A stretch of 64,000 bases of DNA, from positions 416,001 to 480,000 of the forward strand of contig BK006939.2 of NCBI GenBank assembly GCA_000146045.2, read 5' to 3'. The number at the start of each line of letters is the position of its first letter. Position 1 is the stretch's first letter. The notes under the pieces were generated by a model. That model did no database searches. It worked only from the letters and a program-made list of their open reading frames with translations, and was not told the origin of the DNA. Shown here piece by piece: positions 9,188-53,685 of the stretch. Origin of the DNA: TPA_inf: Saccharomyces (taxonomy: Eukaryota). Position numbers and translations under genes: made by a program.

Positions 9188-12100
9188 TTATCTTCGTTTA
9201 CCGAAAAAAGGAAATGGGGCAATATTATCGTTATCATTTGTAGTTGCGTCTTCTTTCCTATTTGTTCTGTTGGCAGTCGCTGATCTATCCTCACAATGCC
9301 CTTCACTCTCCTTACGTCCAGTATTCACTGCAGAAGGCATAAAGGCAGGATTCATGAATAGAGCAGATGTGGAATGTGTCGTCTGAGTACTGAATCTTTT
9401 ATTCATATGTTGTCTCCGTTGTTGAGATGCAGTGAAATCTGTAACGGAAGTCCTAGGTGAGATCTGAGTGGAAGGCGCCTGTGAGAATTTGATGGACGAT
9501 TTCCTGAATCCCTCCGAGATCGGGGAACTTGATGCAAATTTTAAAGCTGGTCTTGTATTTTCTTGCTGTTTTAACGGTGTCGCGACATCAGAGTGCTGCC
9601 TACTTAGAGTAGGAGAAGAAGATCCGCGTGCAAAAATTGGTTTTCCAGTCTCTCTCATTTCGTCATCCATTTGTGAAATGTCTTGTAATACCTTTTTTTT
9701 TAACTTTTTCAAGACTTTGGATAATTCGATTGCTTCCTTCGTGCGCGTCATCAAGTTACTGTCATTAACCAATACAGAAGTTCTATAAATAGACTTCATG
9801 ACATAGTCGACAGGTGGTAGTGCATTGGGTGAGACCATATTTTCCAGGCTAGATATATTAACATATTCCGAACCATCTTCTCTTTGTGAATTAGGTCTAA
9901 TGTATTTGGAAAATGATCCATGTAATCTTGAAGAGCCTGGAGTGCTGGATCCTATTTTATATAAAGGATCAATAGAATCATCAAATTCTTGAGATGTCTG
10001 CTCCTGTAATTTTTTATTCATTTTTGTGAAAGGCAAAATACCTAGCTGTGAATCAAGGTCATCAGAATCAGAGCGGAAGGAAGAACCTGAATCACTATCA
10101 AAACTATCACGAATAAACGGGTCTGTCTCTAAATTGGATGAGTTTTGAGGTATTTCTGTTCCTCTGTTCTTCAATGGATCATTAGTGCGGTCTAAATCTT
10201 TCCCATCGTTGCTGTTTCTCTTTTGCAACGTTTCAACCTTGTATTTATCGAAGTTCGAAATGTCCTGGAGCGTAGCTTGTTCGTTTTGTTCCTCTTTATC
10301 GTCCGAAGCTCTGTTTGACTTACTAGAGTCCAAATTTTGGTAATTATATCTCGTAGGTTCTGTGGGAACTGTTTCAGTAAAACTACTACTTCTTCTTGGA
10401 AAGTTCTGTTGCCGGCTGACTGGTCCACTATCAGGAACATCATCAGTAAATTGATCGGAGGTATCTAATGGATCTGTTTCCCTACTTAAGCTGGATTTCT
10501 TCTTCGTCGCTGGGCTAAATAAGGACACAGAGCGGCGAATATTTTGAACACCCGAATTACTGGGGAATGCAATTGAACCAATCGAATTATGGCTGTCTCT
10601 AGGACCACCGGCAAAAACAGTAGGAACAGCCCTATTGGCAAGCGATCCTATGCTAGAAATTCCCGTGTGGTGCATATCTATTTCGGTTTCTCCATTACTG
10701 TCATCCGTGTAGTGTATTGATTGCGCCATTGAAGTGTTTCGCAAAAGATATGAATCAACGTATCCGTTGTCTATATTGGCTAGGGAACGTTTTATCTCTA
10801 AGGTGTCCTGATATGATTCGCTAGAATCCAACTGCTTTCTTATTTTGCCCTCATTTTCATTGCAATATCTCGAAACCTTTTGCTGGAACAGATTTAGTAG
10901 TGCTTCGCAAGTAACTGAAAGACCTTCTTCCTTTTTGCTGATTATCTTATACAGCACTTCTGTAATCAGTTCGTATAAAATTGGAATTTCGTATATTTTA
11001 GCCATGATAAGCAGGTCCAGGGTCACAGGAGCTAATAGCCATTTGCCATTAATTTGTGCGGTGTAAAAGAACTCTGCAAATGCTCTTACAGAGGCGGTCG
11101 ACCAAGGCATATACAATGATCTCGGGGTTAATAAGGGTTCTAACTCGATTATGGCGTTATTGTTCGAATTTGTACTTTCTACACTTTCAGGGTTTGAAAT
11201 GTAAGAAAGTCTTCTACTCTTTTCATTATTAATATATGATTTTGAAGAAAAAAATTCACCTTCTTTGAAATTGCCGTTTATATTGATTGCATTAATGGTG
11301 GAAAAGATGGGCCTTATATTGGAAGGTGAGATACAGCCGTAGTCTTGATTGTCCCCATCTTCCTCTTCATCTCTTCCATTGTTCATGCCATATTCTTGAA
11401 TACTTGCTTCGTAAGGAATGTCACTGCCATAACTATTACTTAGCAGTTGCGAATCTAGAGTATTCCTCAGCAAAGAAGAGTTAGAGATACGCCTTGCATC
11501 CGAGGAGCTCGATTTTCTGGTGGAATGAGAAGACCTTCTTGACGCGACTGGACTATCCCTACCAAATTGAACGTACTCCGCCAAGGAACTGCTTCTTCTT
11601 GAGGGTGCTTTTGGCACCGGCGGTAGTGGTTCTAGTGGGATCTTTTCTTGTGGGGGTAATGGGATATTCAACACAGGCAAGATAGGCGAGTTTGGTAAAC
11701 TTGCAGAGCTTCCTAAATGAGAAATTTGGTTAGAGTTGCGCCTTCTTCCTGAAGTAGAACTTACAACAGAGGCAGTGCTGGCAGTAGATGCAAATGAAGT
11801 CTGTCGCGACTGATTTGGACTTGCTATAAACCTTAATGCGGATGATTTTCTACGTGAGAAAGCTTTTTCCGCGGGACTAGCCTTTGATATACTACTGGGT
11901 GAAGATTTGGCTATAATGTAAGATTGAAGAGGGTGTGAGGCTCTCCGAATGGATGAAAAGCCGTCATCTACCGAACTATTCGTGGTGGTTCCCACTGTGG
12001 AAGCTCGCCTATAAACTAAAGGTGTATTGGAAAGTGTACAATTGCTATCATTACCATCGTTAGTTGATTTTTTATATACCGGAGGAGGTGAAACAGAGCT

Positions 12101-14449
12101 TGCTCGAGTAGAGCGACCAGACTGTTCTGAAAGCCCCAGCTTTGAATTTTTCATGTCCTGAAAGGGAACCCTAAAGACCATACCTGTAGAAGAGCAAGTG
12201 GTGGATATCGGCCTTTTGTTCGAGGTGCCTGTTTCTTTCAGGCCAGTATCTCCAGTTGCATGTTGTTTTAACGTGTTTGACCGACTGTCCTCCTCATCCG
12301 CACAAAGTATCGGTTCTGAAGGAGATAGTTTATTATGCGAGATGGCTCGCTGCTTGGGTGACGATGTTGATGAAGTAAAGTCTACGCTATGTGGTTTCTT
12401 AAGACTTGTATTACTGTTCGATTTACTATTTCCGTTTTTAGAAAAGTATTTTTCTAGGGATCCGTTGGATGATTGACTAGAGTTACCAAACTTGGTAGTT
12501 TTTGAGGCTGTATGAGGTGAAAAACTTATGATATTAGAAGTGTCTCCATTAAACTCATAATTGAAAGATGTATTTGCATAGCCGTTTGATAATAGTGAAT
12601 CAAAATATCTCCCCCATCTTTTTCTCAATAAATATACTGGAACACCGATAGAATCACCATCAGCAGTGATAAATTCGAAATCAGATAAAGTCTTGCCGAA
12701 TATTTCTAGAGCATCTTTACCTAAAACCATAGCATATGGCGGAAATATAGAACTAGTTGATTCCATTTCTAATGGTACAGTTATATATCTGGAATAGTTC
12801 TCAAATTGTGAGGTCGCAGTCGAAGTCAAGCGGGGGATCCCTGAGTCGTCTAAGGAATATCCTTGAGTTACTGTGTATGGATTTGTGTGCTCAATCGTTG
12901 ATGAATTAGAGTATGGAAGATGATCATAAAGACTTAGATTTACGTTTAAGTTATGACTATTAGCGATGCCATTATTAGTGCGTGTGTGTTTGGTATTCAC
13001 TAATTTATTATAGCCGTTTAACATTGGTAAAGAGAATGATAAAATGTGATCGAATTTTTGAACGCTAGGTGAACAAAAATCATCTGTTCTGGTACCAAGT
13101 AATAAAGCTTGATGATGAGACTTCCAAATCAGAAGCTTCCAAAATCTATGCATACTAATACTGCACTCAGTACATGCTATGTTTACTCTTATCCATTTTC
13201 CACTAGCGATATTATAAATGAAACAATGAAGATTGGAAGGTTGGGGGTCTGGATAAAATCCTATTACAACAATGTTATAATTAAAGTAATTACCTGAGGG
13301 ATACTGCAAGTGAAAAGGTACTTGTAAAATAGAGTTTTCTTTGTTGTTTTGTGTAGGGTTTGATGTCATCCTAGCGCCCTGAGAGTTTCCAAGTAGTGGC
13401 AAAATTACGATAGGCGACATAAGTGTTTTTACTGCGTTTTCATCTGCATCATCGCTTTCAAAATACTTAAGATCGCCATGATGGTGATGGTGATGTTTTG
13501 GTAGTTTGGATTTGTCGTCTAGATCATGAGCGTAAGTAGAGAAACTACCATCGTCGGTTCCCCTTCTGGACGTGTTTGCCTCGCGTTGAGGGTAATATAA
13601 TGCCAATGTCGGAATTTCTGCCTGATTATTTTCAATCAGAACTGAGAAGTTGGAATCGTGAGATAAAGAAATTGGCATCCCATCAATATTAACCAGTATT
13701 TTTGACGACCCCTTTGAAGCTGGGTTTTCGTCCGATTTCGATTCTGACTCCCATAAACTTGTACGTAGGTTAAATATATCAATTTTTTTAACAGGAATAT
13801 CCATATTATCTAACCCACCTACAATGATTAGCTTCGTATCTTGATTTTCGTTATTTTCATTTAGGACGTGCATACTATGATTAAAACGTCTTGTAATTTG
13901 AGGGTTTTCACTTATCAAAGACCAGCACTTTGTTTTAAGATCTAATTTCCATAATTCGTTTGTTGCTATCAGCTCATAGCCGTTGTGAGGCGACACCATA
14001 AGCCCACCGAAAATGTAAATGTTGGATTCTGTGAAGCACATCGAATGAAACAATCTCTCTTTAAAGCTTAAGCCGTTATTCAACTCATTTTCTGATGTAG
14101 TATCTATTGTAGTATTTATTCTTTGCCATGTTCTGGAAATTAAATCAAGGAAAAATATCTCAGGGCTTATCCAATCAGCTAATGTTTTAAAATCAGCATT
14201 TCTATCCTTCTGTTTACCAAAATATAGAATTAGCTCCTTTTGCAGTTGTAATGAATTTATAATAGTCAGATTTAAAGGTAGTGTGAGCCCACCATGGACA
14301 AAAACACCTGAACGGGCTAGTTCTACTGCAGCTCCAGTTCTGCATTCCAAAGTGAGCTTCTTCCTTGTTGCTTCATCCAGATTGGGATTCGGTACAATAG
14401 GGAGGTTGAGCGGATAACAAACACTAGATGGTGGTTGTAATACGGTCAT
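9188..14449 (-). CDS. PMD1: Kelch-repeat negative regulator of early meiotic genes, 1753 aa
   Basis: A 1753-aa ORF starts with ATG (CAT at 14447-14449). It has N-terminal kelch-like repeats and long Ser/Asn-rich low-complexity regions. Size and position match YER132C. Confidence 0.9.
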   Translation of the reverse strand: MTVLQPPSSVCYPLNLPIVPNPNLDEATRKKLTLECRTGAAVELARSGVFVHGGLTLPLNLTIINSLQLQKELILYFGKQKDRNADFKTLADWISPEIFFLDLISRTWQRINTTIDTTSENELNNGLSFKERLFHSMCFTESNIYIFGGLMVSPHNGYELIATNELWKLDLKTKCWSLISENPQITRRFNHSMHVLNENNENQDTKLIIVGGLDNMDIPVKKIDIFNLRTSLWESESKSDENPASKGSSKILVNIDGMPISLSHDSNFSVLIENNQAEIPTLALYYPQREANTSRRGTDDGSFSTYAHDLDDKSKLPKHHHHHHGDLKYFESDDADENAVKTLMSPIVILPLLGNSQGARMTSNPTQNNKENSILQVPFHLQYPSGNYFNYNIVVIGFYPDPQPSNLHCFIYNIASGKWIRVNIACTECSISMHRFWKLLIWKSHHQALLLGTRTDDFCSPSVQKFDHILSFSLPMLNGYNKLVNTKHTRTNNGIANSHNLNVNLSLYDHLPYSNSSTIEHTNPYTVTQGYSLDDSGIPRLTSTATSQFENYSRYITVPLEMESTSSIFPPYAMVLGKDALEIFGKTLSDFEFITADGDSIGVPVYLLRKRWGRYFDSLLSNGYANTSFNYEFNGDTSNIISFSPHTASKTTKFGNSSQSSNGSLEKYFSKNGNSKSNSNTSLKKPHSVDFTSSTSSPKQRAISHNKLSPSEPILCADEEDSRSNTLKQHATGDTGLKETGTSNKRPISTTCSSTGMVFRVPFQDMKNSKLGLSEQSGRSTRASSVSPPPVYKKSTNDGNDSNCTLSNTPLVYRRASTVGTTTNSSVDDGFSSIRRASHPLQSYIIAKSSPSSISKASPAEKAFSRRKSSALRFIASPNQSRQTSFASTASTASVVSSTSGRRRNSNQISHLGSSASLPNSPILPVLNIPLPPQEKIPLEPLPPVPKAPSRRSSSLAEYVQFGRDSPVASRRSSHSTRKSSSSDARRISNSSLLRNTLDSQLLSNSYGSDIPYEASIQEYGMNNGRDEEEDGDNQDYGCISPSNIRPIFSTINAININGNFKEGEFFSSKSYINNEKSRRLSYISNPESVESTNSNNNAIIELEPLLTPRSLYMPWSTASVRAFAEFFYTAQINGKWLLAPVTLDLLIMAKIYEIPILYELITEVLYKIISKKEEGLSVTCEALLNLFQQKVSRYCNENEGKIRKQLDSSESYQDTLEIKRSLANIDNGYVDSYLLRNTSMAQSIHYTDDSNGETEIDMHHTGISSIGSLANRAVPTVFAGGPRDSHNSIGSIAFPSNSGVQNIRRSVSLFSPATKKKSSLSRETDPLDTSDQFTDDVPDSGPVSRQQNFPRRSSSFTETVPTEPTRYNYQNLDSSKSNRASDDKEEQNEQATLQDISNFDKYKVETLQKRNSNDGKDLDRTNDPLKNRGTEIPQNSSNLETDPFIRDSFDSDSGSSFRSDSDDLDSQLGILPFTKMNKKLQEQTSQEFDDSIDPLYKIGSSTPGSSRLHGSFSKYIRPNSQREDGSEYVNISSLENMVSPNALPPVDYVMKSIYRTSVLVNDSNLMTRTKEAIELSKVLKKLKKKVLQDISQMDDEMRETGKPIFARGSSSPTLSRQHSDVATPLKQQENTRPALKFASSSPISEGFRKSSIKFSQAPSTQISPRTSVTDFTASQQRRQHMNKRFSTQTTHSTSALFMNPAFMPSAVNTGRKESEGHCEDRSATANRTNRKEDATTNDNDNIAPFPFFGKRR

Positions 14450-15126
14450 TTTTAAAAACTTTATGCTTTCACCTAATTATAGAAACGCGTACTAATGTTT
14501 TTTGTTATTGAAGAAACTGGAAATGACTAAAGAATACTCAGGCAACGATGAGCATAGCCAAAAAAAAAAAAAAATTTGTTAAAAGTGATACTGGTAACTT
14601 TAATACAATATCCAAAGTTTATGATATCAAGTTGGAAACGGTGTCGATGTGGACTTTGTTAGAGGTTAATCTGTATTTGTGACTGGGCTCTGCCAAACTT
14701 ACTATCTTCTATTATCTAGGCTCAAGTAAGTAAGATGAAAAAAAGAAAAAGAAAAAAAAGCAGAAAAAAAGCAGAAAAAACAGTAAAGTGGGTGTGAGTG
14801 CACTGGAAAGCCTGTGTAATAAGTTTTTGATGTACTGTATTCCTTGCGAGTATTATCACAAAGCTCTACTGTGTTTGCACTGTGGGCGTATAGGGATATC
14901 GCGAGGGCAACGCAAAACTAGCAAGATACACATATTCCATACATTAAAGCGGTAATTTTTAGTAGTTAATTTCGAAATTTCAAACCCGGCAATGATACGC
15001 ACATTAAGAAAAGGGAAAAAAAAAAGAATAAATTGGCCATAGAAAAATTCTGTTATCCACTAGACAGAAGTTTGCGTTCCATACTGTCAGAGGTGGCATT
15101 TTACATAACAATAGTGACAAAAAATA

Positions 15127-15218
15127 AATTTCAGAAGGAAGGCAACATAAGTTTTTCTAATCCTAAAATCTTTCGATTTTGTATCAGAGATTGTTCACGC
15201 TAATGTCATTCATCATAG
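15127..15218 (-). ncRNA. SNR52: C/D-box snoRNA transcribed by Pol III
   Basis: The minus-strand RNA reads ACUAUGAUGAAUGACAUUAGCG...CUUCUGAAAU. It has a C box AUGAUGA, a D' box CUGA and a D box CUGA. A B-box-like GGCGTTCGAAAC sits in the leader just upstream (plus strand about 15245-15256). The position matches my recollection of snR52 between PMD1 and GLC7. Confidence 0.55.
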
Positions 15219-15507
15219 TAGATCATTTATCTTTCACTGCGGAGAAGTTTCGAACGCCGAAACATGCGCACCAACTTTCACTTCTACAGCGTTTGACCAA
15301 AATCTTTTGAACAGAACATTGTAGGGTGTGAAAAAATGCGCACCTTTACCGCTAGCCCAAGAGGGCACTACAAAATCTAGAGTTGTACTTCAAACGTACA
15401 TGTAATCACCTTGTATATACTCGAAAGAAAACATCAAGTTTCTGTATAAATATGAGTGAAAGCATAATCATACATTATCTTTTCAAAGATGAAGAGTGGG
15501 TGAATTT

Positions 15508-15822
15508 TGAGATAATTGTTGGGATTCCATTTTTAATAAGGCAATAATATTAGGTATGTAGAAAGTACTAGAAGTTCTCCTCGAGGATTTAGGAATCCAT
15601 AAAAGGGAATCTGCAATTCTACACAATTCTATAAATATTATTATCATCATTTTATATGTTAATATTCATTGATCCTATTACATTATCAATCCTTGCGTTT
15701 CAGCTTCCACTAATTTAGATGACTATTTCTCATCATTTGCGTCATCTTCTAACACCGTATATGATAATATACTAGTAACGTAAATACTAGTTAGTAGATG
15801 ATAGTTGATTTTTACTCCAACA
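15508..15822 (-). repeat. Solo Ty1/Ty2 delta LTR
   Basis: It begins TGAGATAATTGTTGGGATTCC and ends ...GATTTTTACTCCAACA. It is about 315 bp with no matching 5-bp target duplication. It lies about 290 bp upstream of the snR52 Pol III unit. Confidence 0.85.
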
Positions 15823-16494
15823 AAAGAATTACAGTCAGTGGCTGTTTGCTGACATTTCATTGCTTCCCTTACAACCTGATTTCCATTCGAGTTGAAAGGT
15901 TGAGAAAAATTGCAAGACTTCTCTCTCATCTACCTTCCCCTTTTCTTGAAGACAAGGTGAGAGACAATTTAGTACTAAAGCTTTTGCGGTTGTTATTCAA
16001 TTGAGGTAGATACCTGGCAAAACATTTCTTGTGAGCACAACCTCAATTAAAGTTAGACAAGTAGGTGCACTATTGGTTGCTTGTTGGCTCATCTCGTTGA
16101 GGAATGTAATAACTACTTGTTATTAACCTGTTTTTGTGCCATCTATAGTGGAGAGCTTATTGCAATTTGTTTTTTATTTCTTGACTGCATATATCAGTCT
16201 TTGACAGGCTGCATGGGGATGACAGTTAGAAACTAGCCAAATTACCCCTTATGTAGATAACAATCATTGCTTATTCGCTCTTCCCCCATTTTTTTTCTTG
16301 CTCTTGCTGTTTTTTCTTTTAGCGTTCGTTTCAAGGAACAAGAGAGGGAAAAAAAAATCAAAAGTAGAAAAGAAGAAGAAAAAAACAACGTAACACAAGT
16401 TAACACCACAACTGAAAAAAAAAATAAGAGGTGAACGAACGAGTAACTGGGGAGAGGAAAGCAGATTACCACAATATACATTCAAATTAAAGAA

Positions 16495-16671
16495 ATGGAC
16501 TCACAACCAGTTGACGTTGATAATATCATCGATAGATTATTGGAAGTAAGAGGATCTAAACCTGGTCAACAAGTTGATCTAGAAGAAAATGAAATCAGAT
16601 ACTTATGTTCGAAAGCCAGATCTATATTCATAAAGCAACCCATTTTACTAGAGTTAGAAGCCCCAATTAAA
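16495..16671 (+). CDS. GLC7: Protein phosphatase 1 catalytic subunit, exon 1 (59 codons)
   Basis: The translation [59 protein letters not shown] is followed directly by a GTATGT 5' splice site at 16672. Confidence 0.95.
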
Positions 16672-17196
16672 GTATGTTAATGTTGAACTTCGCAGTCAAG
16701 AGATAGAATGCCTAGAGCTTCAGGTGTTTTATGTGTTCTACTCCTGTTGCGGCAGTAAGATAGTTACAGCAGTTATTTCCGTTTGACTGAAAGAATTTAC
16801 CAAGCATCTGATGTTAGCCTACTCATATGTCGAGATAGCCGAGATAATGTGTGTGTTTAGCTCTTCATTTTTCTATCTTATTAGGCATTTTTTTACCAAG
16901 ATTTCCTTATGTTTTGTATCATCATCCGGCCGGCGCCTCCCATATTCAGAAAAATCCCCCTTGCTCACACTAAAAAAAGAAGGCATTTTTTCGTTATGAA
17001 GAAAACGAATCTTTTTTTTTTTTGAGCCCGAGAGAAAGGTCGGACGAAAACCAAGAAATGTGGATTTGCAGAAGGCATTGGGAGAAATGAAGCGTTTTTG
17101 ACAGCAGTAATTGTTCTCTTAAAGTCAACGGAATGAGCTAGATTTAGTGACAAATTCATTTACTAACTTATTTTTTTCTATTTTTTTTTTTTTTAG
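16672..17196 (+). other. GLC7: GLC7 spliceosomal intron, 525 nt
   Basis: The intron has GTATGT at 16672, a TACTAAC branch point at 17161-17167, a poly-T tract and a TTTTAG 3' splice site ending at 17196. Splicing joins ...APIK to [20 protein letters not shown], the conserved PP1 sequence. Confidence 0.95.
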
Positions 17197-17958
<762 letters not shown>

Positions 17959-18540
17959 ATAGATTCACGTCCTAAATCAAAGTTTAAAAAGGAAAATACT
18001 TATTAACAAGAAGAGTAGTAGAAGAAAAATACAAGAAACATAAACGTAGAAAACTTTTAGTCAATTCTTTAAGCGAAGAATACGAAAGAAACATCAAGAA
18101 AACAAAGGAAGATGCAATCATCACTCGTCATATACACAAATAATTCCCTTTAGTGCAACAAACCGCGAAAAAGCATAAGAAACATAAAAAAAATATAAAA
18201 AAAAGGAGATAATAATAAGATGTGAAGGATTTGAATTAGTGGAAAAATGATAAGTCTACACTATTATTATTAACGAAATGCAATTTTTCTTTATTTTCTT
18301 TTATTACTATTATCATTACTATTATTATTAGTATTATTATTTTTTTACTTATTTTTATATTAAACTATGTTAAATTACTATATTATTATTTTGTCTAACT
18401 CTATATTGAGGCTGTCTTTCGTTGCACTGTTAAGAATGGTCACGTCTTCCTTTGGCTTTGAACCCTTTTATAAACAAGTTGGCCAAATCATTTAGTCAAT
18501 CACGTCAACCTGTCTAAAATAAGACAGGTAAAAAAGAAAA

Positions 18541-19128: not shown

Positions 19129-19135
19129 GAATGGG

Positions 19136-19466
19136 TGAACAATTTGAGACAGTTGTTGGATTCCATTGTTGTTAAAGGCTGCAATATTACGTAGAACGAA
19201 TATGCTGCAATTCTCCTCGAGAAAAAATAGGAATCTACAAAAGGCGAATCGATAGCTCTACATAATAATGTTACTTTATCTTCTTCCTTTTATACTTTGT
19301 CATTCTTTTTCTTATTACGTTATCAGTTCTTGCATTTCAGGTGCTATTATATTTGGTGACTATTTCTCAATCTCTATGACATCTTCTTATACCGTACGTG
19401 ATAATATAATAGTGATATGAATACCAGTCGATAGACGATAGTTAGTTGGGTTTTATTTAACAAATA
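19136..19466 (-). repeat. Diverged solo LTR of the delta/Ty1-Ty2 family (older subfamily)
   Basis: It runs GGGTGAACAATTTGAGACAGTTGTTGGATTCC...CTCGAGAAAAAATAGGAATC...GTGACTATTTCTCAATCTC...AGTTAGTTGGGTTTTATTTAACA. It aligns with delta in minus orientation at about 80-90% identity and is about 90% identical to the inverted copy at 26734. Confidence 0.6.
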
Positions 19467-19750
19467 GGTTCCCGAGAAAAAGTTCTAATATTTTCTATTT
19501 ACCCAATAGTACTACCCCATCAAATAATAGAATCATAGTAATTATCAGTAACAAAATATACAGCCCTCATCAGCAATGTAGTCTCAACAACTGCCCCCAG
19601 AATTCACCGCTTTTCTTCGATCGTCAATATGGAAGTGAGGAAACTCGGGCTCACTTAAAACGAACTGCATGTTTTAAAATCATTATCCATGCAAGTGTGG
19701 CATAAAAGCCGTAGTTAGATATATCTCAAACGCGCAAAAAGTTAAAAAGA

Positions 19751-19823
19751 AAGCCCTGTAGGGGGCTCGAACCCCTAACCTTATGATTAAGAGTCATACG
19801 CGCTACCGATTGCGCCAACAAGG
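19751..19823 (-). tRNA. tK(CUU)E2: tRNA-Lys (anticodon CUU)
   Basis: The minus strand reads GCCTTGTTGGCGCAATCGGTAGCGCGTATGACTCTTAATCATAAGGTTAGGGGTTCGAGCCCCCTACAGGGCT. The anticodon is CTT and the cloverleaf is standard. Confidence 0.9.
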
Positions 19824-19945
19824 CTCTTATTGTTGTTTTTCTGATTCTTATGGAGGGATTAGAGAGCAAAGTAAAGTACTTATATGTAATTTAACATTCG
19901 ATGAACCGCGGATAATTAGTAATATGAAATGGGTGATGTTCATAA

Positions 19946-20277
19946 TGTAGAGAATGTGGATTTTGATGTAATTGTTGGGATTCCATTGTGATTAAGGCTA
20001 TAATATTAGGTATGTAGATATACTAGAAGTTCTCCTCCAGGATTTAGGAATCCATAAAAGGGAATCTGCAATTCTACACAATTCTATAAATATTATTATC
20101 ATCGTTTTATATGTTAATATTCATTGATCCTATTACATTATCAATCCTTGCGTTTCAGCTTCCATTGAAAACGATGACTATTTCTCATCATTTGCGTCAT
20201 CTTCTAACACCGTATATGATAATATACTAGTAACGTAAATACTAGTTAGTAGATGATAGTTGATTTTTATTCCAACA
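19946..20277 (-). repeat. Solo delta LTR (about 332 bp)
   Basis: It begins TGTAGAGAATGTGGATTTTGATGTAATTGTTGGGATTCC and ends ...GATTTTTATTCCAACA. It is nearly identical to the delta at 15508 and lies about 120 bp upstream of the tRNA-Lys 5' end. Confidence 0.85.
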
Positions 20278-20605
20278 CATAATTAGAATTTAAAAGGCAG
20301 TATTGGTGAAGATTGAACATTAATTTTCTTATGCTTATATAATAGAGGTATGAACACACGCATATAGGATCATTATATAGTTATGGCTAGTATTATCATG
20401 GCTCTGGTAATTTCATACATTTGATGTCGTCACGACTCATATTATTTGCTCATATATATAACTTCCTCATATATATAACTTCCTCATCAAGTTCAATTAA
20501 TAGATCTTTAGTTCAAATTCAGAACATTCTGAATTTGTCGTTTAACATTTCCTTCTGCAAGAGTACATTCACACTGGAACGTATACGAGGTGTAAATTGG
20601 TATAC

Positions 20606-20790
20606 TGTTGGAATAAAAACCAACTATCGTCTATCAAGCGAGGCGCTGAAATCCTACTATTCGCTCGAAAGACCGCTGAACGCAGGAGATTCTTTTTTGA
20701 TCTTGAATATCATTTGAGTATTTTTGTTCTACATTCTAGTTTTAGGAAAATCATCAATCTATGGCAGGAATCAATAGTGTTGGAATAAGA
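20606..20790 (+). repeat. Fragment of a tau/delta-like LTR
   Basis: It begins TGTTGGAATAAAAACCAACTATCGTCTATCAAGCG... and a second TGTTGGAATAAGAAATG follows at about 20776. It is truncated. Confidence 0.35.
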
Positions 20791-26733: not shown

Positions 26734-27063
26734 TGTTGAAAGAAGAATAAACGATCATCCATCGACTAGTACTGCTGCTACTAGTGTGCTGTCATACTAC
26801 TAATATATTATCATATACAATATAAGAAGATGTCATAAACATTGAAAATAGTCATCAAATCTAATGGAAGCTGAAATTCAAGGGTTGATAATGTAATAAA
26901 ATAAAGAATGACAAAGTATAAAAGGAAGAAGATAGAGTAACATTATTATGTAGAGCTATCAATTCGCTTTTTGTAGATTCCTATTTTTTCTCGAGGAGAA
27001 TTGCAGCATATTCGTTCCACGTAATATTGCGGCCTTTAACAACAATGTAATTCCAACAATTAT
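26734..27063 (+). repeat. Diverged solo LTR of the delta family, inverted copy of the element at 19136
   Basis: It reads TGTTGAAAGAAGAATAAACGATCATCCATCGACTAGTACTG...CTCGAGGAGAATTGCAGCATATTCGTTCCACGTAATATTGCGGCCTTTAACAACAATG. The 3' boundary is uncertain and could extend to about 27110. Confidence 0.55.
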
Positions 27064-27201
27064 CTTAAAATTTGTCTATATTTTTAAAAAAGTATGAACA
27101 ATTACCAACATGTGGTACATATTGGAGGCCCGCAAAGCTGAGTTGGCATTCATTCATTCTTTAAGTTGAACAAAAAGACAAAAAGATTTTCAAAAAAAAT
27201 A

Positions 27202-27275
27202 TGGTCTCTAGCGGGATCGAACCGCTGATCCCCGCGTTATTAGCACGGTGCCTTAACCAACTGGGCCAAGAGACC
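27202..27275 (-). tRNA. tI(AAU)E1: tRNA-Ile (anticodon AAU)
   Basis: The minus strand reads GGTCTCTTGGCCCAGTTGGTTAAGGCACCGTGCTAATAACGCGGGGATCAGCGGTTCGATCCCGCTAGAGACCA with an AAT anticodon. Confidence 0.9.
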
Positions 27276-27370
27276 AAATTTTAATGAAATACTTTTACTG
27301 GAAAGAAGGTAACAAACCATGGAAGATGCTTTTCTACCACCCATGAAAGTCTGAGATTTTTATTAATGAT

Positions 27371-27396
27371 GTTGGAATAAAAATCAACTATCATCT
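27371..27396 (+). repeat. Left 26-bp remnant of a solo delta that was split by the Ty1 insertion
   Basis: TGTTGGAATAAAAATCAACTATCATCT is delta positions 1-27. It is followed directly by the Ty1 end. It continues at 33321 (CATCTACTAACTAG...) after the 5-bp duplication. Confidence 0.7.
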
Positions 27397-27755
27397 TGAG
27401 AAATGGGTGAATAATTAGATAATTGTTGGGATTCCATTGTTGATAAAGGCTATAATATTAGGTATACAGAATATACTAGAAGTTCTCCTCGAGGATATAG
27501 GAATCCTCAAAATGGAATCTATATTTCTACATACTAATATTACGATTATTCCTCATTCCGTTTTATATGTTTATATTCATTGATCCTATTACATTATCAA
27601 TCCTTGCGTTTCAGCTTCCACTAATTTAGATGACTATTTCTCATCATTTGCGTCATCTTCTAACACCGTATATGATAATATACTAGTAATGTAAATACTA
27701 GTTAGTAGATGATAGTTGATTTCTATTCCAACATACCACCCATAATGTAATAGAT

Positions 27756-30700
27756 CTAATGAATCCATTTGTTAGTTAATAGTTTAAATGTTTTTATCGG
27801 AAGAGGTTTTGTCATCACATCAGCAATGTTCTTCTTGGTCTCGATGTAGTATACGTATAAATTATTACCTGATACTTCATCTCTAAGTCTCATTGCCTTT
27901 GTGCCAAAAAATCTGTTTCTAAATTTCTCTTCATTTGTAGACTTAATTATACTGATCGTTGATCTACTATCAGTAAGTAAGCCTTTAATAATTGGTTTCT
28001 TGTTAAGTTCTTGTATCAGGTAACTTAGATTATTTAATAATGGGACAGATTCACTTATCGCGTGTATTTCTGCTTCCGTAGTTGAAGTACATGTTAATGA
28101 AGCCTTGGTGGACTTTCCTCCAATTACCTTTCCATTAAGTAAATATATGTTGCCAATTTGTGATTTATAATACGGTTGGTTGCCATACGAAGCATCACTT
28201 ATTGCGACTAGTTTATTATCTGGCTCGGTAGGTTTGTTTTTGTGCCATATCAGTTGTTTATCTCTAGTGTCCCACATGAATTGTATCAACTCATATGTCA
28301 TGTCTAAAACTTGCCTAGAGGGGAATAGTATATGTTGAGCAAGTGTGTTGATGTAGTATAGTAAGTCAAATCTAAATTTATATCCAACATATGAAGCTAG
28401 ACCAATCAACTTTTGCATTTCATGTACCTTCTCTTTGTATTCATCTTCATCTATTTCTAGTTCATCCTGGTCTATATAAAGACCTGGTTGACCTGGAGCG
28501 CTAAGTTTTCTTCCTTTTGGATTCAAAGGTACGTTTAATTTGGGTATTTTCTCAGTTAATGAGTTTTCCATACCTAATTTCATGTATTTACCTCTTTGAT
28601 ATTTGATTTCTAAGCCAAGTATGTCGTACTGAATTTCGTTATCACTTTCACCCAGATTTATTATCTTTGTATCGTATTGTTTCTTGAGTGTTGTTATGAT
28701 TTTCTTATTTGCATTTAAGTCTTTGCTGAATAAAATCATGTCGTCAACAAATAAACATATTGTTACTTGACTATTCTTAAATACGCATGACCATCCACGA
28801 ACTTCTTCCATACCACACTGTTTTATCAGGTATGATTTGATAGTTTCGTACCAGTTCGCTCCACTTTGTTTCAATCCATAAAGTGATTTCTTCAAACGTA
28901 TCAACTTATCATTCATTCCTAAATGTGGTGGAGGTCTTATGTATAATTCTTCTTTGATGTCTGCATACAAATATGCCGAAGATATGTCTAATTGTGTAAT
29001 ATAGTAGTTATTGTCTAATGCAAGTGACAGGGATGTCATTAATGCATAGTGATGTACGGTATTGGATTGCATGCCTGAGTCGTAAGTGTCAGGATGCTGA
29101 ATATCACCTCTTGCAACAAATCTAGCTTTATGAGTACCGTCACGTTTCTTGTTGAAGATAAACATTGAGTTTATTACTCTTTTAGGGTCTATTTCTTTTC
29201 TGTCATAATATTCGTCAGTGTCCCAAGTTTTCATCTTCAACAGTTGATTGACTTCTTTGTGGTATGCCTCGATATATTTTTCTTTTTCTTTAATATCTTT
29301 ATTATAGGTGATTGCCTCATCGTATCGTAAGGTTGTCCGTATTGGTTTGATTGATTTTACTGCTTTTACAGCTGCAATCAGGTGAATTCGTTTCTTCGAT
29401 CTCGGAGGTTCTAAACTACGCATATTCTTAGTATTCCATGTGTCTCGTGATACCTTAATTTCAGTTTCATTATCTTCTAATGATCTTTTCTTACTGTTGA
29501 TAGTAGTATAGGCATTAGAGTCACCAATACCACCCAAACTGGAATTAGTTTGATGAGAATTTATCGGTGGGAGTTCTTTAAATGGGTCAGGGAATTCGGT
29601 AGGAGATTCTGGAGGTAGATCAGGGAGTGGGAGATCAGCGATGATAGATTCCTCGGTATTCTGTTCAGAAACAGTAGTTGGCGTTTTGATAGGAACAATA
29701 TTGTGCGATGAATTATTTTCCGGTGGAGAAGCATCGATTGAAGGTGAACGGTGTATAATCCTTTTCTCAGTCTCTTGGTCACTTATCTGCGGAACAGTTT
29801 TGTTGTTGGTACCACCCGTACTGGATATTGGTACGTTTGTATGATTAGTCTCATTTTCACTGTACGAGTCTGAGTGTCTGAAATCTTTAGATTTACTGGC
29901 GTGCGACGACTCATGTGTGTTAGATTGGGACATGGGAGCAAGTAAAGGAACATTTAATTTATGCATACCACCCGAACCGGTACTCTCGATATTGGAAATT
30001 TGGGGGGTGCTAGATCTCTTCTTTGATGGAAGAATATTAGATTCAGATATGTTGGGGTCAACTTCTCTGGGTGCGCGAATATTGGTTTTAGAAACACGTT
30101 TCGAATCTTCAGTATGAGTTGACGGAGGTGTGGAATCGGTTGGACTCACAGCTTTTGAAAGGACATTTCTCGGTTGCTCAGGATGTAGTTCGATGTCAGA
30201 TTGGAAGTCATGGTCAGATTCTATGTTAAGATCATCGGATTGTTGGATCTCATTTGACGCAATGAACGATTGATATGAAGCAGTTAAACGGTTTAAGTCT
30301 TCATCGAAAGTGAGTGCGTCGTAATTGAATTGATCTAATCTGGATTCCTTGCCCTGAAGAATAACATAGTTAGTTGTATCTACTGTCTTCTTTAAGGATG
30401 GAAGATAGATGATATATCCATAAGAGTTTCGAGACGGATGTAGAGCGTAGCCTGGGATGCCACGAGGATGTATTTTGGAGTTAGGGTTGTGATCATTGAC
30501 GATAACAGGTTGACCGAAAGGTAACAAAGTACTGATATCAAGTCCTGCCAAGCCAGCATGTTGTCTTGCAGATTTTTTGCTTTTAGGTGAAGCTAGTGAA
30601 TTTCTCACAATAGTAGAAAATTCGATTGCAGAGAACCATAAATGGTTCGGTAAACCACTACATTGCAGTTGAGTACGGCAGTCATCTAATAAGGTACGGT

Positions 30701-31718
30701 TGAGCCGTTCAGCGACTCCATGTGCTCGGGAATCCGCTGTGGTTGTATAGCATGGAGTTATACCATTTTTTTCAAGGAATTTATGGAGAGTTCTGTTAGT
30801 ATACTCAGAACCACGGTCCATTTGTATAACCAAGACACTGGCCTGAAACTGGTTCTTAATAAAAGCTAGTATCGTAGTAAAAACATCGAGGATAGAGTCC
30901 TCGCGACGGTCGTGTAATGGATAAACCCAACGGAATTTTGTTGTCTCATCAGTAAATGAGATGAAATAGGATGGTGCACTTTTTGGTAGGTTGTGAACTG
31001 GACCAAATATGTCAGTATGTAGGTATTGAAAGGGTTCGTATGAATTTTGGTATTTTAGTCGTGAACCTTTGATATGTCTGTGTTTGGTGCTTTTGCCGAT
31101 TAAACAATCAGGACATTGATAGTCAATAGCACTAGACCAGTCGACATCTGATTCGTTAAAATACGTGATGGTGTTATTTTTAAGTGAGTATCGAATTGTC
31201 TGTGCATTGGCATGTGCAAGCATTCGATGAATGAAAGGATAAGGATATTTGCGTGTACTTTCACTTGTATGGACATTATTGATGGTGGGTACGGAGATAT
31301 TTGATGGAAGCAAGTACTTTTTAGATACCCAGTAAAAGTCTCCATATTTTACGATAGGTGCAAGTACAGTGCCGTCAGATCGTTCTAAGACGTTTTTGGT
31401 AAAGCATGCTGTGATATCTACTGCAGCCAATTCATTCAAACTGAGTAAGTCATAGGCTATGTTAGGAGTGTGCAATACCTTTATTGATGTTTTGGTGTTG
31501 TCCTGGAAGTGAAATTGTAGGTCACCAATAGCGTTAATTGGTATATTTCTTTTTTGAGCATCAACTACGTTTATGTCAGGATTAGATGATGCTGAGTGTA
31601 TGTGATGAGCAGATCTTATAAGGGTTCGTGATGCTCCTGAATCGAGAAGGAGGTGTCCAGGGAGTTCATCATCAGAATGATTAGTGTGATTTACCGTAGA
31701 TTCAGTAAGTTCCTGGCC
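27756..31718 (-). CDS. TYB: Ty1 Pol (TYB), expressed as a Gag-Pol fusion by a +1 ribosomal frameshift
   Basis: The frameshift heptamer CTT-AGG-C sits at 31716-31722 on the minus strand. The downstream frame is open for 1320 codons to the stop at 27756-27758. It contains the protease DSGAS motif, the integrase HHCC and DD35E motifs, and the RT/RNase H YVDDM motif. Confidence 0.9.
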
Positions 31719-33024
31719 TAAGGTGAAGGTCGTGCTTATTGTTCAATTGAATCGGTTCAGTAGTTGATTTACTGATGGAATCGTTGTCCGTGCTGGGAGA
31801 GTTATTAGATGTGGATACATTGTGAGCCCTGGCTGTTTTCGATTTCGAATTATTTGTTTTTTGAGGATTCCGAGCTATAACTTTGGGTTTGGTTGTATTC
31901 GTATAGCTGCGAGAATCATTCTTCTCATCACTCAGATTTCTCCTGTAATTAGGTTTGCTGTTTCTCGATCCCTGTTGTTCTTCATAAATAGCATGGATAT
32001 CTAAGAACAGTTCAGCGACTGTCATATTTAGATGTCGATGACGTGTGTAGCGTAAAAATTTATATTCGCCAGATAGACCTCTCATAATTAATTGGCATGC
32101 GACCTTGTTATTGATATGAATGCCATTATTGTTCAGTCTGTCGATAATGTTTGTGACTTTTGTTTCAAATGCATCTGCAGGTGTACTGCCATTATATTGC
32201 AAATTTGCCAGGGTCACAATGTCGTTTGCCTCTTGGGTATCAGATTGCATTTTTTCAATACTTTTGGAAAGAATTTTCATGATATCCGTATAATCAACGG
32301 ATAGGATGTCTTTGACCCAGGTAGGTAGGAATTGAGAGGGAGCAAATATTTGAAAAGTGTTATACAAGAAGGTGAGTTCATCATCAGTGATCTGACGTAC
32401 GGGTTTTCCGTTTACTGTCGGAATAATACCACCGAGATTCGAGTTTTGTAAAAATTTGATGTATGTTTTAACCCAATTTGGAAAGTCATTAGGTGAGGTT
32501 AACATTGGTGGTGGTCTGACATATTTTTTAGTGGATGTCATATCAGAGTCCGCTGAGGATGAATCAGTAAATGTATTACCTGACTCAGGTGATGGAGTGC
32601 TCAGAGGCGTTCCAACTGATGATGGATACTGCGGAAACTGTGATTGTGGCCCAGGTGGAAAGTACATAGGCGACATTTGATAAGGTGTATACGGAATCAT
32701 AGATGGGTGTCCGTAAAATGACCAACCAGATGGATTGGCTTGGTTTTGGGTCATCATGCACTGCTGTGGGTACGGCCCATTCTGTGGAGGTGGTACTGAA
32801 GCAGGTTGAGGAGAGGCATGATGGGGGTTCTCTGGAACAGCTGATGAAGCAGGTGTTGTTGTCTGTTGAGAGTTAGCCTTAGTGGAAGCCTTCTCACATT
32901 CTTCTGTTTTGGAAGCTGAAACGTCTAACGGATCTTGATTTGTGTGGACTTCCTTAGAAGTAACCGAAGCACAGGCGCTACCATGAGAAATGGGTGAATG
33001 TTGAGATAATTGTTGGGATTCCAT
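31702..33024 (-). CDS. TYA: Ty1 Gag (TYA), 440 aa
   Basis: The protein [42 protein letters not shown]... starts at an ATG inside the 5' LTR (CAT at 33022-33024). This is the typical Ty1 capsid protein. Confidence 0.95.
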
Positions 33025-33320
33025 TGTTGATAAAGGCTATAATATTAGGTATACAGAATATACTAGAAGTTCTCCTCGAGGATATAGGAATCCTCAAAAT
33101 GGAATCTATATTTCTACATACTAATATTACGATTATTCCTCATTCCGTTTTATATGTTTATATTCATTGATCCTATTACATTATCAATCCTTGCGTTTCA
33201 GCTTCCACTAATTTAGATGACTATTTCTCATCATTTGCGTCATCTTCTAACACCGTATATGATAATATACTAGTAATGTAAATACTAGTTAGTAGATGAT
33301 AGTTGATTTCTATTCCAACA

Positions 33321-33630
33321 CATCTACTAACTAGTATTTACGTTACTAGTATATTATCATATACGGTGTTAGAAGATGACGCAAATGATGAGAAATAGTC
33401 ATCTAAATTAGTGGAAGCTGAAACGCAAGGATTGATAATGTAATAGGATCAATGAATATTAACATATAAAACGATGATAATAATATTTATAGAATTGTGT
33501 AGAATTGCAGATTCCCTTTTATGGATTCCTAAATCCTCGAGGAGAACTTCTAGTATATCTACATACCTAATATTATAACCTTAATCACAATGGAATCCCA
33601 ACAATTACATCAAAATCCACATTCTCTACA
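33321..33630 (+). repeat. Right-hand remnant of the pre-existing solo delta interrupted by Ty1 (delta positions about 23-334)
   Basis: It reads CATCTACTAACTAGTATTTACGTTACTAGTATATTATCATATACGGTGTTAGAAGATGACGCAAATGATGAG...CACATTCTCTACA, which is the same delta subtype as the elements at 15508 and 19946. It runs opposite to the Ty1 LTR. Confidence 0.85.
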
Positions 33631-33699
33631 AATGAAGAAACTGCTTATAGTCAATTGAACGATTTACCGGTATTTTAACGCCATTATATATATTAGTAA

Positions 33700-33900
33700 A
33701 AAGATGGCGTATATTGATGGACTAACAGGGTCAAATAAAATCATGAATTGACTAGTATATACTTATAAGTATATCGTTCTACACAAACTAGGAAGATGAC
33801 ATACATGATGAGAATTGGTTATCAAATTCCATGGATGCCGAAACGTAAAAGATTTACTAAATAGTAGGATAATTATTGATAACATACAAAACAAAAAAAA
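33700..33900 (+). repeat. Highly diverged LTR-like fragment
   Basis: The segment GGAAGATGACATACATGATGAGAATTGGTTATCAAATTCCATGGATGCCGAAACGTAAAAGATTTACTAAATAGTAGGATAATTATTGATAACATACAAAAC parallels the delta core AGAAGATGACGCAAATGATGAGAAATAGTCATCTAAATTAGTGGAAGCTGAAACGCAAGGATTGATAATG at about 70% identity. Confidence 0.3.
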
Positions 33901-34562
33901 AAGAGACAATATTATTATCTAGAAGTGTCGACTTCCTTCTGTGGGTTTCCTATGTTCTCGAAGAGAGCTTCAAGTGTATTCTATAAACTAAGAATATTAG
34001 TTTAACGAAAGATCGAAGTCAGACACCTATCTAACTTTCATTAAATTATCACACAAAAATCCCACATACTCTCGTCTTGCTAAACAAATAATAAATTGAA
34101 GGTGAACGATTCTTCTTGCAGCGTCCTAGCTGTTGGGTCGTCTTAGATAAATATCTACTGTTCTGAATTGCCAAATTTTCCTTCTATTGTATCCATTCGA
34201 TGCTGGACGGCCAGTTCTACCGTTATTGCCCAAAAGGAAGGAACGTCGCGATACTTCAACACATTAAATACTTGTTGATTTTCGAACCAAAACTCTGAAG
34301 CAACACTTTCGTATATGGATGGCCCTTCAGAGAAACCAATAGGTATGTAAAGAATTGCTACGTGGTGACTCAAAGTGAATTATAGCAAAGTTATAAAAGC
34401 GCTACATTGTAGAAAATTGAGAACCACATTTTGACATACACGAATAACAGTATTTTTGTCCTGGCGCTGTAAAGTATTTTAAGTTATGATGATGAATTAA
34501 CTATTTTCAGCCAATGAAACGTCCATAATCTGTTCTGAATTTAGGTGCATTGATATAGCCGG

Positions 34563-52816: not shown

Positions 52817-53343
52817 TCGAATAGTCTTTAACTAGAGACTTATTTTAAACAGGACATGTGTTTTTTACTAATATTGTATTCTTCGATGTAGTCGTTATAG
52901 TTCTTTTTCTTCAAATCATTTAAATAAAGAAACTATTTTTTCTTTTTGTGTGTAGAATAATAAATGTAATTCTAGTTCTTCCTTTTTTTTTTTGGCTTTT
53001 TCACAGCTCATCTTTTTTACCCATTTGGTCATGATTATGTTGTTTGCCGTTGTGCAATAGGGAGTTTGTAAATCCTGAGATAAAGTATGGTGCTTCGAGG
53101 TTAGCACTTAATTGGCGTAAGCTGCTTAATGACAAAACCCTCCTTGGGCTTGGCGTATACGAAATATGCTCCTGCGAAGCGCAGTGGCAATATTGAGCAC
53201 TATGTTAACGATAACGTGTTGGACTCATCGTCTGTGCACATATGATTGAAATCGGGAATCCTCTGCTTTTTTTAGGTAAAATCAAACTTTGGCTAAATTT
53301 GGATGATTACTTAAAGTAAGAAATGAATCTTAAGAGATGTATG

Positions 53344-53395
53344 AGTTTTGTGATAATTGTTGTGATTCCATTGTTGCCAAAGGCCATAATATTTT
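53344..53395 (-). repeat. Truncated delta LTR fragment
   Basis: GTGATAATTGTTGTGATTCCATTGTTGCCAAAGGCCATAATATTTTG matches the U5-side end of a delta in minus orientation. It lies about 60-110 bp upstream of the second tRNA-Val. Confidence 0.45.
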
Positions 53396-53456
53396 GAAAT
53401 TCACATTCCTTCTACAAGGTATTTGTTTCTTAAATGTTCATCTCCAAGAAATAATT

Positions 53457-53530
53457 GGTTTCGTGGTCTAGTCGGTTATGGCATCTGCTTAACACGCAGA
53501 ACGTCCCCAGTTCGATCCTGGGCGAAATCA
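53457..53530 (+). tRNA. tV(AAC)E2: tRNA-Val (anticodon AAC), identical in sequence to the copy at 22700
   Basis: The 74-nt sequence GGTTTCGTGGTCTAGTCGGTTATGGCATCTGCTTAACACGCAGAACGTCCCCAGTTCGATCCTGGGCGAAATCA is the same as at 22700. It is followed by a T-run. Confidence 0.95.
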
Positions 53531-53685
53531 TTTTTTAAATATGCCAAGCATAAAGTGTAACTCTGTTTCTCTGTCTGTCTCTATTTCTTTTTTAAAATCG
53601 TGCTCACTATCGTATTGTATTGTATTGTATTGTATTATTGCTATATTATTTTTTATGTATTTTGTCTATAATACCACCCCCCGTC

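Follow-up and report, generated by a model that had tools for sequence, protein, structure and literature searches.

A full-length Ty1 nested in a solo LTR upstream of a tRNA-Ile gene: two successive integrations at what is almost certainly the YERCTy1-1 locus of Saccharomyces cerevisiae S288C

Nested clusters of Ty elements and LTRs upstream of tRNA genes have been described before (Kim et al. 1998; Carr et al. 2012), and in these clusters repeated integration into the upstream window of Pol III genes has placed newcomers inside old LTRs. Using REannotate, Carr et al. (2012) reported several cases termed "1-nested" on chromosome V alone. Files S2 and S3 of Carr, Bensasson and Bergman (2012) contain the element chrV_i5-_TY1, which is YERCTy1-1, at 443393-449316; it is given there as "1-nested", full-length and belonging to an active clade. 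Its host is chrV_st71+_TY2, an LTR in two fragments (443366-443392 and 449317-449626 in File S3), which File S2 labels as TY2, solo and of an active clade. According to the same authors the Ty1 and the host LTR are each present in 2 of 13 strains, both are polymorphic, and their presence/absence patterns in the published table are identical. The 310-bp part of the host LTR was unannotated at the time of the work of Chan & Kolodner (2011) and received from them the name YERWdelta20B. The canonical Ty1 elements of S288C (Ty1-H3, Ty1-JR1, GR2, JR2 and LR1) have in common LTRs of ~335 bp, a tRNAiMet primer binding site (PBS), the frameshift heptamer CTTAGGC and a Gag-Pol protein of 1,755 aa, and the copy Ty1-ER1 shares this architecture.

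In this work we have analysed a stretch of 64,000 nucleotides, referred to here as the window, in which an initial annotation made from the letters alone had described an intact Ty1 nested inside an older solo delta. The region is almost certainly YERCTy1-1 (YER137C-A/YER138C) on chromosome V of S. cerevisiae S288C, carrying two successive integrations upstream of a tRNA-Ile gene. The translated Gag-Pol matches NP_011064.3 (UniProt Q03612, "Transposon Ty1-ER1 Gag-Pol polyprotein") exactly over all 1,755 residues, the genes flanking the locus are GDI1 and RTR1, again by exact match, and the order of Pfam domains in the neighbouring genes is consistent with one chromosomal locus. The chromosome V coordinates of Carr et al. 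(2012) are offset by +415,996 from those of the window, and once this is allowed for we found no difference between their YERCTy1-1 and ours in coordinates, orientation, nested status or the splitting of the host LTR. The nested structure is already known: the published 2012 re-annotation of S288C contains the element, its nesting and the host LTR, together with their population frequency.

The tRNA gene next to the insertions is a tRNA-Ile with anticodon AAT, identified by ARAGORN at 27201-27276 on the minus strand, so that its upstream side lies towards higher coordinates. Going upstream from the 5' end of this gene, the edge of the host LTR is reached after 93 bp. The host LTR lies on the plus strand and consists of a left stub at 27370-27396, which contains LTR positions 1-27, and a right part of 310 bp at 33321-33630, which contains positions 23-332. 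The sequence CATCT, native to the host LTR at its positions 23-27, forms the last five nucleotides of the stub (27392-27396) and the first five of the right part (33321-33325). After removal of one CATCT, the 27 bp at 27370-27396 and the 305 bp at 33326-33630 join without a gap into one LTR of 332 bp. The rejoined LTR aligns end to end with an independent LTR at 19946-20277 of the window (97.6% identity over 332 nt, E = 3e-163), and this bears out the earlier suggestion that the two flanks are one contiguous LTR. The left stub had been given as 26 bp starting at 27371; a stub is indeed there, but it starts at 27370 and is 27 bp long, the string quoted for it having already contained 27 nt. On the outer sides the LTR is bounded by two copies of AATGA, at 27365-27369 and 33631-33635, a motif which occurs only once in strains with an empty site. 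The host is a solo LTR: complete, bounded by its own target-site duplication and without any internal Ty sequence belonging to it.

To which family does the host LTR belong? The independent LTR at 19946-20277 is chrV_st66-_TY2 in the nomenclature of Carr et al. (2012), and the host LTR is of the same class by their label; unlike chrV_st66-_TY2, it is split by the Ty1, directly after position 27. A 1-bp deletion relative to Ty1 LTRs is diagnostic of Ty2 LTRs according to Kim et al. (1998), whom Carr et al. (2012) quote on this point. The length of 332 bp and the full-length identity to the TY2-labelled copy are consistent with the Ty2 class assigned by Carr et al. The first 175 nt of the host LTR differ from the Ty1's own LTR by three mismatches and the 3' half is only ~80% identical to it, because the two belong to different families and not because the host is old. 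The host LTR is "older" only in the sense that it was inserted first; the LTR itself is young, polymorphic and, per Carr et al. (2012), of the Ty2 class. Of the initial description of an older solo delta invaded by a Ty1 in opposite orientation, the nesting and the order of insertion thus hold, but the old age does not.

The full-length Ty1 of 5,924 bp that had been proposed was confirmed at 27397-33320 on the minus strand; it is a Ty1/copia LTR retrotransposon (Pseudoviridae). Its two direct LTRs, the 3' LTR at 27397-27733 and the 5' LTR at 32984-33320, are each 337 bp long, which is within the range of about 334-338 bp expected for Ty1, and both have TG...CA termini (TGTTGG...TCTCA). They are 99.1% identical, with three mismatches. 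Between them lies an internal region of 5,250 bp (27734-32983, minus strand), in which the PBS TGGTAGCGCC adjoins the 5' LTR and the polypurine tract GGGTGGTA adjoins the 3' LTR. We take the PBS to be complementary to the initiator tRNA-Met. No second copy of the internal region was found within the window. The CATCT target-site duplication of 5 bp, which had been called perfect, abuts both ends of the Ty1 exactly, and the point of integration lies 120 bp from the 5' end of tRNA-Ile(AAT), in the upstream window of a Pol III gene.

A search for an empty site in other strains had been proposed as a check, and it was successful. We compared ten other S. cerevisiae assemblies, retrieved via the RTR1 protein, and six of them (L001, L003, L004, L007, L008 and L009) have an uninterrupted site with a single AATGA, lacking the LTR as well as the Ty1; for L001 and L003, 270 bp of flank on either side of the empty site match the window at 100% identity. 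The four other assemblies have unrelated insertions nearby. L006 has an intact target site and is grouped with these four since its match to the left flank starts only at window position 27151, beside a different LTR inserted at 27151-27155. An allele with the host LTR and without the Ty1 was not found among the ten assemblies. The Ty near the site in L005 has an LTR 99.7% identical to the host LTR, and we considered it as an independent Ty2 reference; it was dropped, since no ORF of more than 176 aa is present in its internal region.

The coding capacity of the Ty1 largely agrees with what had been read by eye. The TYA (gag) ORF has the expected 440 codons plus stop (31702-33024, minus strand); its ATG, at 33024, lies within U5 of the 5' LTR, its stop ends at 31702, and the product matches Pfam TYA with E = 1.8e-232. 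The +1 ribosomal frameshift heptamer CTTAGGC is intact in gag frame 0, as stated, at 31716-31722. The TYB (pol) frame had been given 1320 codons and in fact has 1,328 plus stop (31742 to a stop ending at 27756, minus strand), in the copia-type order PR-IN-RT-RNase H. Translation with the +1 shift (reading CTT, skipping A and resuming at GGC) gives a fusion of 1,755 aa, and neither Gag nor Gag-Pol has a premature stop. Pfam detects, in this order, Pol_BBD (residues 459-533), rve (663-763), SH3_retrovirus and RVT_2 (1281-1487). The catalytic residues are all present, namely the protease DSG (461-463), the integrase HHCC (599/604/637/640) and D,D35E triad (D671, D736, E772), the RT motif FVDD (1425-1428) and the RNase H residues D1610, E1652, D1685 and D1735.

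These residues are invariant across the six S288C Ty1 copies covered by our protein comparison, a set which the sequence of Ty1-H3 itself lies outside. The named S288C Ty1 Gag-Pol proteins are 97-100% identical to that of ER1, which is thus a Ty1 and not a Ty2 coding sequence. ER1 differs from Ty1-JR1 at 8 amino acids and from the other compared copies at 20-89. Within the element, the differences between the 5' and 3' LTRs are clustered in U5, at 27413, 27414 and 27416, where the 3' LTR carries the variant "NY" and the 5' LTR the variant "QH". This patch shows that some recombination took place, either after integration or during reverse transcription. We rejected the 0.9% LTR divergence as an estimate of age, since the three differences sit together in a single patch, which corresponds to a Ty1 variant that already exists.

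The events at this site can be put in order. A Ty element with Ty2-class LTRs would have integrated 93 bp upstream of tRNA-Ile, duplicating AATGA; LTR-LTR recombination, the standard origin of solo LTRs, would then have shrunk this element to the 332-bp solo LTR; and a Ty1 cDNA would finally have integrated in the opposite orientation between LTR positions 27 and 28, duplicating CATCT. The structure and the order of the first and last of these steps, LTR first and Ty1 second, are shown by the nested duplications. It is from these duplications alone that the order is read, because in the empty alleles LTR and Ty1 are both missing and no LTR-only intermediate was seen. Is it possible that the arrangement arose instead by an inversion or a gene conversion between the Ty1 LTR and the neighbouring inverted solo LTR? 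The Ty1 5' LTR and the LTR remnant beside it do make up a long inverted repeat on which such events can act, and the 3-nt patch in U5 indicates that some recombination touched the Ty1. However, a rearrangement of this kind would not account for the direct repeat of five native LTR nucleotides, perfect and placed exactly at either end of the Ty1, nor for two pieces which add up to a single 332-bp LTR, with nothing lost and nothing overlapping, that is bounded by AATGA, and we regard this origin as very improbable. Even harder to credit is a nesting produced by misassembly of the repeated LTR sequence. Such errors do occur readily where Ty elements abound, and the Ty of L005 with its short ORFs lies near this very site, but the annotation of the finished S288C reference by Carr et al. 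(2012) has the same structure at identical coordinates. Moreover, Chan & Kolodner cloned and sequenced junctions of YERCTy1-1 with adjacent unique sequence, and array-CGH breakpoints also map to this element. Two successive integrations, the second inside the product of the first, explain both duplications.

Judged by its sequence, the Ty1 has lost none of the cis and trans features that a further round of retrotransposition is known to require, and it is probably active; because it is intact, it is reasonable to call it competent, as the initial annotation did. It may be that the Ty1 is structurally intact and nevertheless disabled by a missense or cis change, or silenced at this locus. Our search of the literature yielded no direct activity assay of YERCTy1-1, between 8 and 89 residues separate its Gag-Pol from those of sister copies, and its LTRs differ by the U5 patch. 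Against this, every catalytic residue is conserved, Gag is identical to several other S288C Ty1 Gag entries, and the only residue private to ER1 among the six compared copies is residue 11, in the N-terminal part of Gag. For Carr et al. (2012), YERCTy1-1 is a polymorphic member of the young, active clade. In addition, a long-read assembly of the strain YMV80 contains an extra Ty on chromosome III whose closest match is YERCTy1-1, and its authors read this as a retrotransposition event. On this evidence we consider a non-competent Ty1 unlikely, and a competent one remains the reading that we prefer.

The nesting has a further consequence for the structure of the locus. The Ty1 5' LTR and the 310-bp host LTR remnant now stand head-to-head, and their inverted junction, at 33146-33473, is a quasi-palindrome with arms of 153 nt, which are 99% complementary and separated by a spacer of 22 nt, and it extends imperfectly to about 300 nt. 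Breakpoints of chromosome V right-arm rearrangements map to YERCTy1-1/YERWdelta20b, and the literature invokes this pair as recombination substrates. Could the inverted junction be a natural fragile site, prone to form hairpins or cruciforms, which initiates these rearrangements beyond providing passive homology? We hold this to be possible, if doubtful. If it were true, YERCTy1-1/YERWdelta20b would initiate the rearrangements and not serve only as passive homology.

Compared with the other nested clusters, YERCTy1-1 shows no substantive difference, except that it is unusually clean, with both duplications perfect. The nested target-site duplications could here be recovered accurately by eye from the sequence. 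The locus has little discovery value, and what it offers is a clean textbook case of layered Ty insertions upstream of tRNA genes.

In this work we have examined a minus-strand Ty1 which lies inside, and in opposite orientation to, a plus-strand solo LTR. By direct reading of the window the element runs from 27397 (TGAGAAATGGG...) to 33320 (...TTCCAACA), and CATCT stands directly outside each end (27392-27396 and 33321-33325); both the full length of 5,924 bp and the perfect target-site duplication described in the initial annotation were thus confirmed. To the left lies TGTTGGAATAAAAATCAACTATCATCT (27370-27396), correctly recognized earlier as LTR sequence but counted as 26 bp from 27371 instead of 27 nt from 27370, and on the right LTR sequence runs on to 33630. 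When 27370-27396 is joined to 33326-33630, the resulting 332 nt align end to end with an independent LTR copy at 19946-20277 (97.6% identity, E = 3e-163) and without a gap at the join. The gapless join and the alignment to single LTR copies therefore show that the flanks are one LTR, as had been proposed; the Ty1 cut it between its nucleotides 27 and 28 and duplicated positions 23-27 on insertion. The rejoined LTR is itself bracketed by a perfect target-site duplication, AATGA (27365-27369 and 33631-33635), which the initial annotation did not contain.

Could the host LTR be the old delta it was taken for? It did insert earlier than the Ty1, but it is not old by age, since Carr et al. 2012 (PMC3511429) label it as Ty2 and place it in a young, active clade, and since it is polymorphic. 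Compared with the LTR of the Ty1 itself, it has three mismatches in the first 175 nt and about 80% identity over the 3' half; the latter is a difference of family, not decay. The copy at 19946-20277 is likewise a Ty2-labelled solo LTR. Ten other S. cerevisiae assemblies were retrieved via the neighbouring RTR1 protein, and in six of them (L001, L003, L004, L007, L008 and L009) the flanks meet at the same site with a 5-bp overlap, leaving a single AATGA and neither LTR nor Ty1; L003 reads ...TTTTTATTAATGAAGAAACTG... there. The reconstructed empty site aligns unbroken across the insertion position in other assemblies (98.2-99.8% identity), and L001 and L003 lack the host LTR, although in both the 270 bp to either side of the site match the window at 100% identity. 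These alleles confirm the host LTR boundaries and show both insertions to be polymorphic. No allele with the host LTR and without Ty1 was found among the ten assemblies, and the order, LTR and then Ty1, therefore rests on the logic of nesting: CATCT is native LTR sequence, duplicated only around Ty1.

The translated Gag-Pol matches NP_011064.3 (UniProt Q03612, "Transposon Ty1-ER1 Gag-Pol polyprotein") exactly, and its neighbour ORFs are likewise identical to Gdi1p and Rtr1p. Around it, Pfam gives a gene order of kinase, zinc-finger, kelch, PP1 and GDI, followed by Rtr1, DUF747, Cox15, Ddi1-like and UBP, which fits one chromosomal locus. Taken together, these matches and the gene order identify the element as YERCTy1-1 on chromosome V of S288C. 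The Ty sequences of S288C were all re-annotated by Carr, Bensasson and Bergman (2012; PMC3511429), who used a tool for defragmenting nested insertions; their Files S2/S3 list the Ty1 as chrV_i5-_TY1 (chrV 443393-449316, minus; "1-nested", full-length, active clade, polymorphic, 2/13 strains) and the host as chrV_st71+_TY2 (443366-443392 + 449317-449626, plus; solo LTR, active clade, the same 2/13 strains). Window coordinates plus 415,996 give every coordinate of both entries. The 310-bp piece had already been noticed by Chan and Kolodner (2011; PMC3102749), who described it as a delta missing from the annotation and gave it the name YERWdelta20B, and YERCTy1-1 serves as a recombination partner in other papers. 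In view of the entries in Carr 2012 and Chan and Kolodner 2011, the structure is already known in every respect. The observation of a nested Ty1 is confirmed, and its interpretation as a nested insertion is supported with minor corrections.

Is YERCTy1-1 still able to move? Its gag runs from an ATG at 33024, inside U5, to a stop ending at 31702 (440 codons), and the +1 frameshift heptamer CTTAGGC is intact at 31722-31716 in gag frame 0, both as first read. When CTT is read, the A is skipped and translation resumes at GGC, the product is a Gag-Pol of 1,755 aa that ends at 27756; as claimed, pol is an open frame, but over 1,328 codons and not 1320. The PBS TGGTAGCGCC borders the 5' LTR and the PPT GGGTGGTA the 3' LTR, and the Pfam domains TYA, Pol_BBD, rve, SH3_retrovirus and RVT_2 follow in copia order. 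The protease DSG, the integrase HHCC and D,D35E, the RT FVDD and the RNase H acidic residues were all found, and these catalytic motifs are invariant in all six S288C Ty1 proteins compared. In a long-read assembly of YMV80 there is an extra Ty whose best match is YERCTy1-1, interpreted by its authors as retrotransposition. Intactness, active clade, polymorphism and this extra Ty make it plausible that the element is retrotransposition-competent. Both its LTRs are exactly 337 bp in a length scan, with three mismatches between them, and the repeat finder independently gave a 300-nt core at 99% identity. The three differences cluster in U5 (LTR positions 318, 320 and 321; window 33000-33003 versus 27413-27416) and turn Gag codons 8-9 from QH in the 5' LTR into NY in the 3' LTR, a variant also present in Ty1-LR1 and Ty1-H. 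They look less like three separate point mutations than like one patch from recombination or conversion, so that LTR divergence is unusable as a clock; an age estimate from it was dropped, the differences being clustered and matching that variant.

The two integrations lie 93 bp (host LTR) and 120 bp (Ty1) upstream of the 5' end of tRNA-Ile(AAT) (27201-27276), each with a 5-bp duplication. From established Ty biology, the region upstream of the Pol III gene would have been the target of both elements, and the first would have become a solo LTR by LTR-LTR recombination. The cluster is flanked at 26798-27072 and 33740-34005 by degenerate relics of deltas, which share about 68-76% identity with the Ty1 LTR; the matching LTRs are inactive and fixed in the species according to Carr et al. 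2012 (PMC3511429). Half of the ten assemblies (L002, L005, L006, L008 and L010) have other Ty elements or LTRs inserted at most about 400 bp from the site, at window-equivalent positions 27151-27155, ~33640, ~33698-33706, 33720/33765 and 34043-34047. Because relics lie on both sides and different insertions occur in these five assemblies, we regard the tRNA-Ile site as a recurrent integration hot spot. In L005, the LTRs of a Ty2-like element at 11400-18200 show 99.7% and 98.5% identity to the host LTR of the window, but the element contains no ORF >176 aa; it is either an assembly error in a repeat or a decayed copy.

A second LTR cluster (19130-20637) adjoins tRNA-Lys and may be another nested site. 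It comprises a diverged delta (19130-19443), the 332-bp Ty2-class solo LTR (19946-20277), a Ty4 LTR (about 20279-20605, from Carr's GFF) and a 28-bp delta stub (20606-20633). A further solo delta at 15497-15822 shares 96% identity with the host LTR, and a delta fragment of 61 bp (53333-53393) is found a short distance upstream of the second tRNA-Val (53456-53531).

Lastly, nesting in opposite orientation sets the 5' LTR of the Ty1 head-to-head with the host LTR remnant. The repeat finder detected a quasi-palindrome with 153-nt arms (33146-33298 and 33321-33473), 99% complementary around a 22-nt spacer, which continues imperfectly to arms of about 300 nt (33000-33630). The fold computed for this region as single-stranded DNA has an energy of -259 kcal/mol, with z = -43 relative to shuffled sequences. 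Published breakpoints of chromosome V rearrangements map to this same pair of Ty1 5' LTR and host LTR remnant. Perhaps the inverted junction is fragile by itself, the sole reading of this locus with some novelty left, albeit modest.
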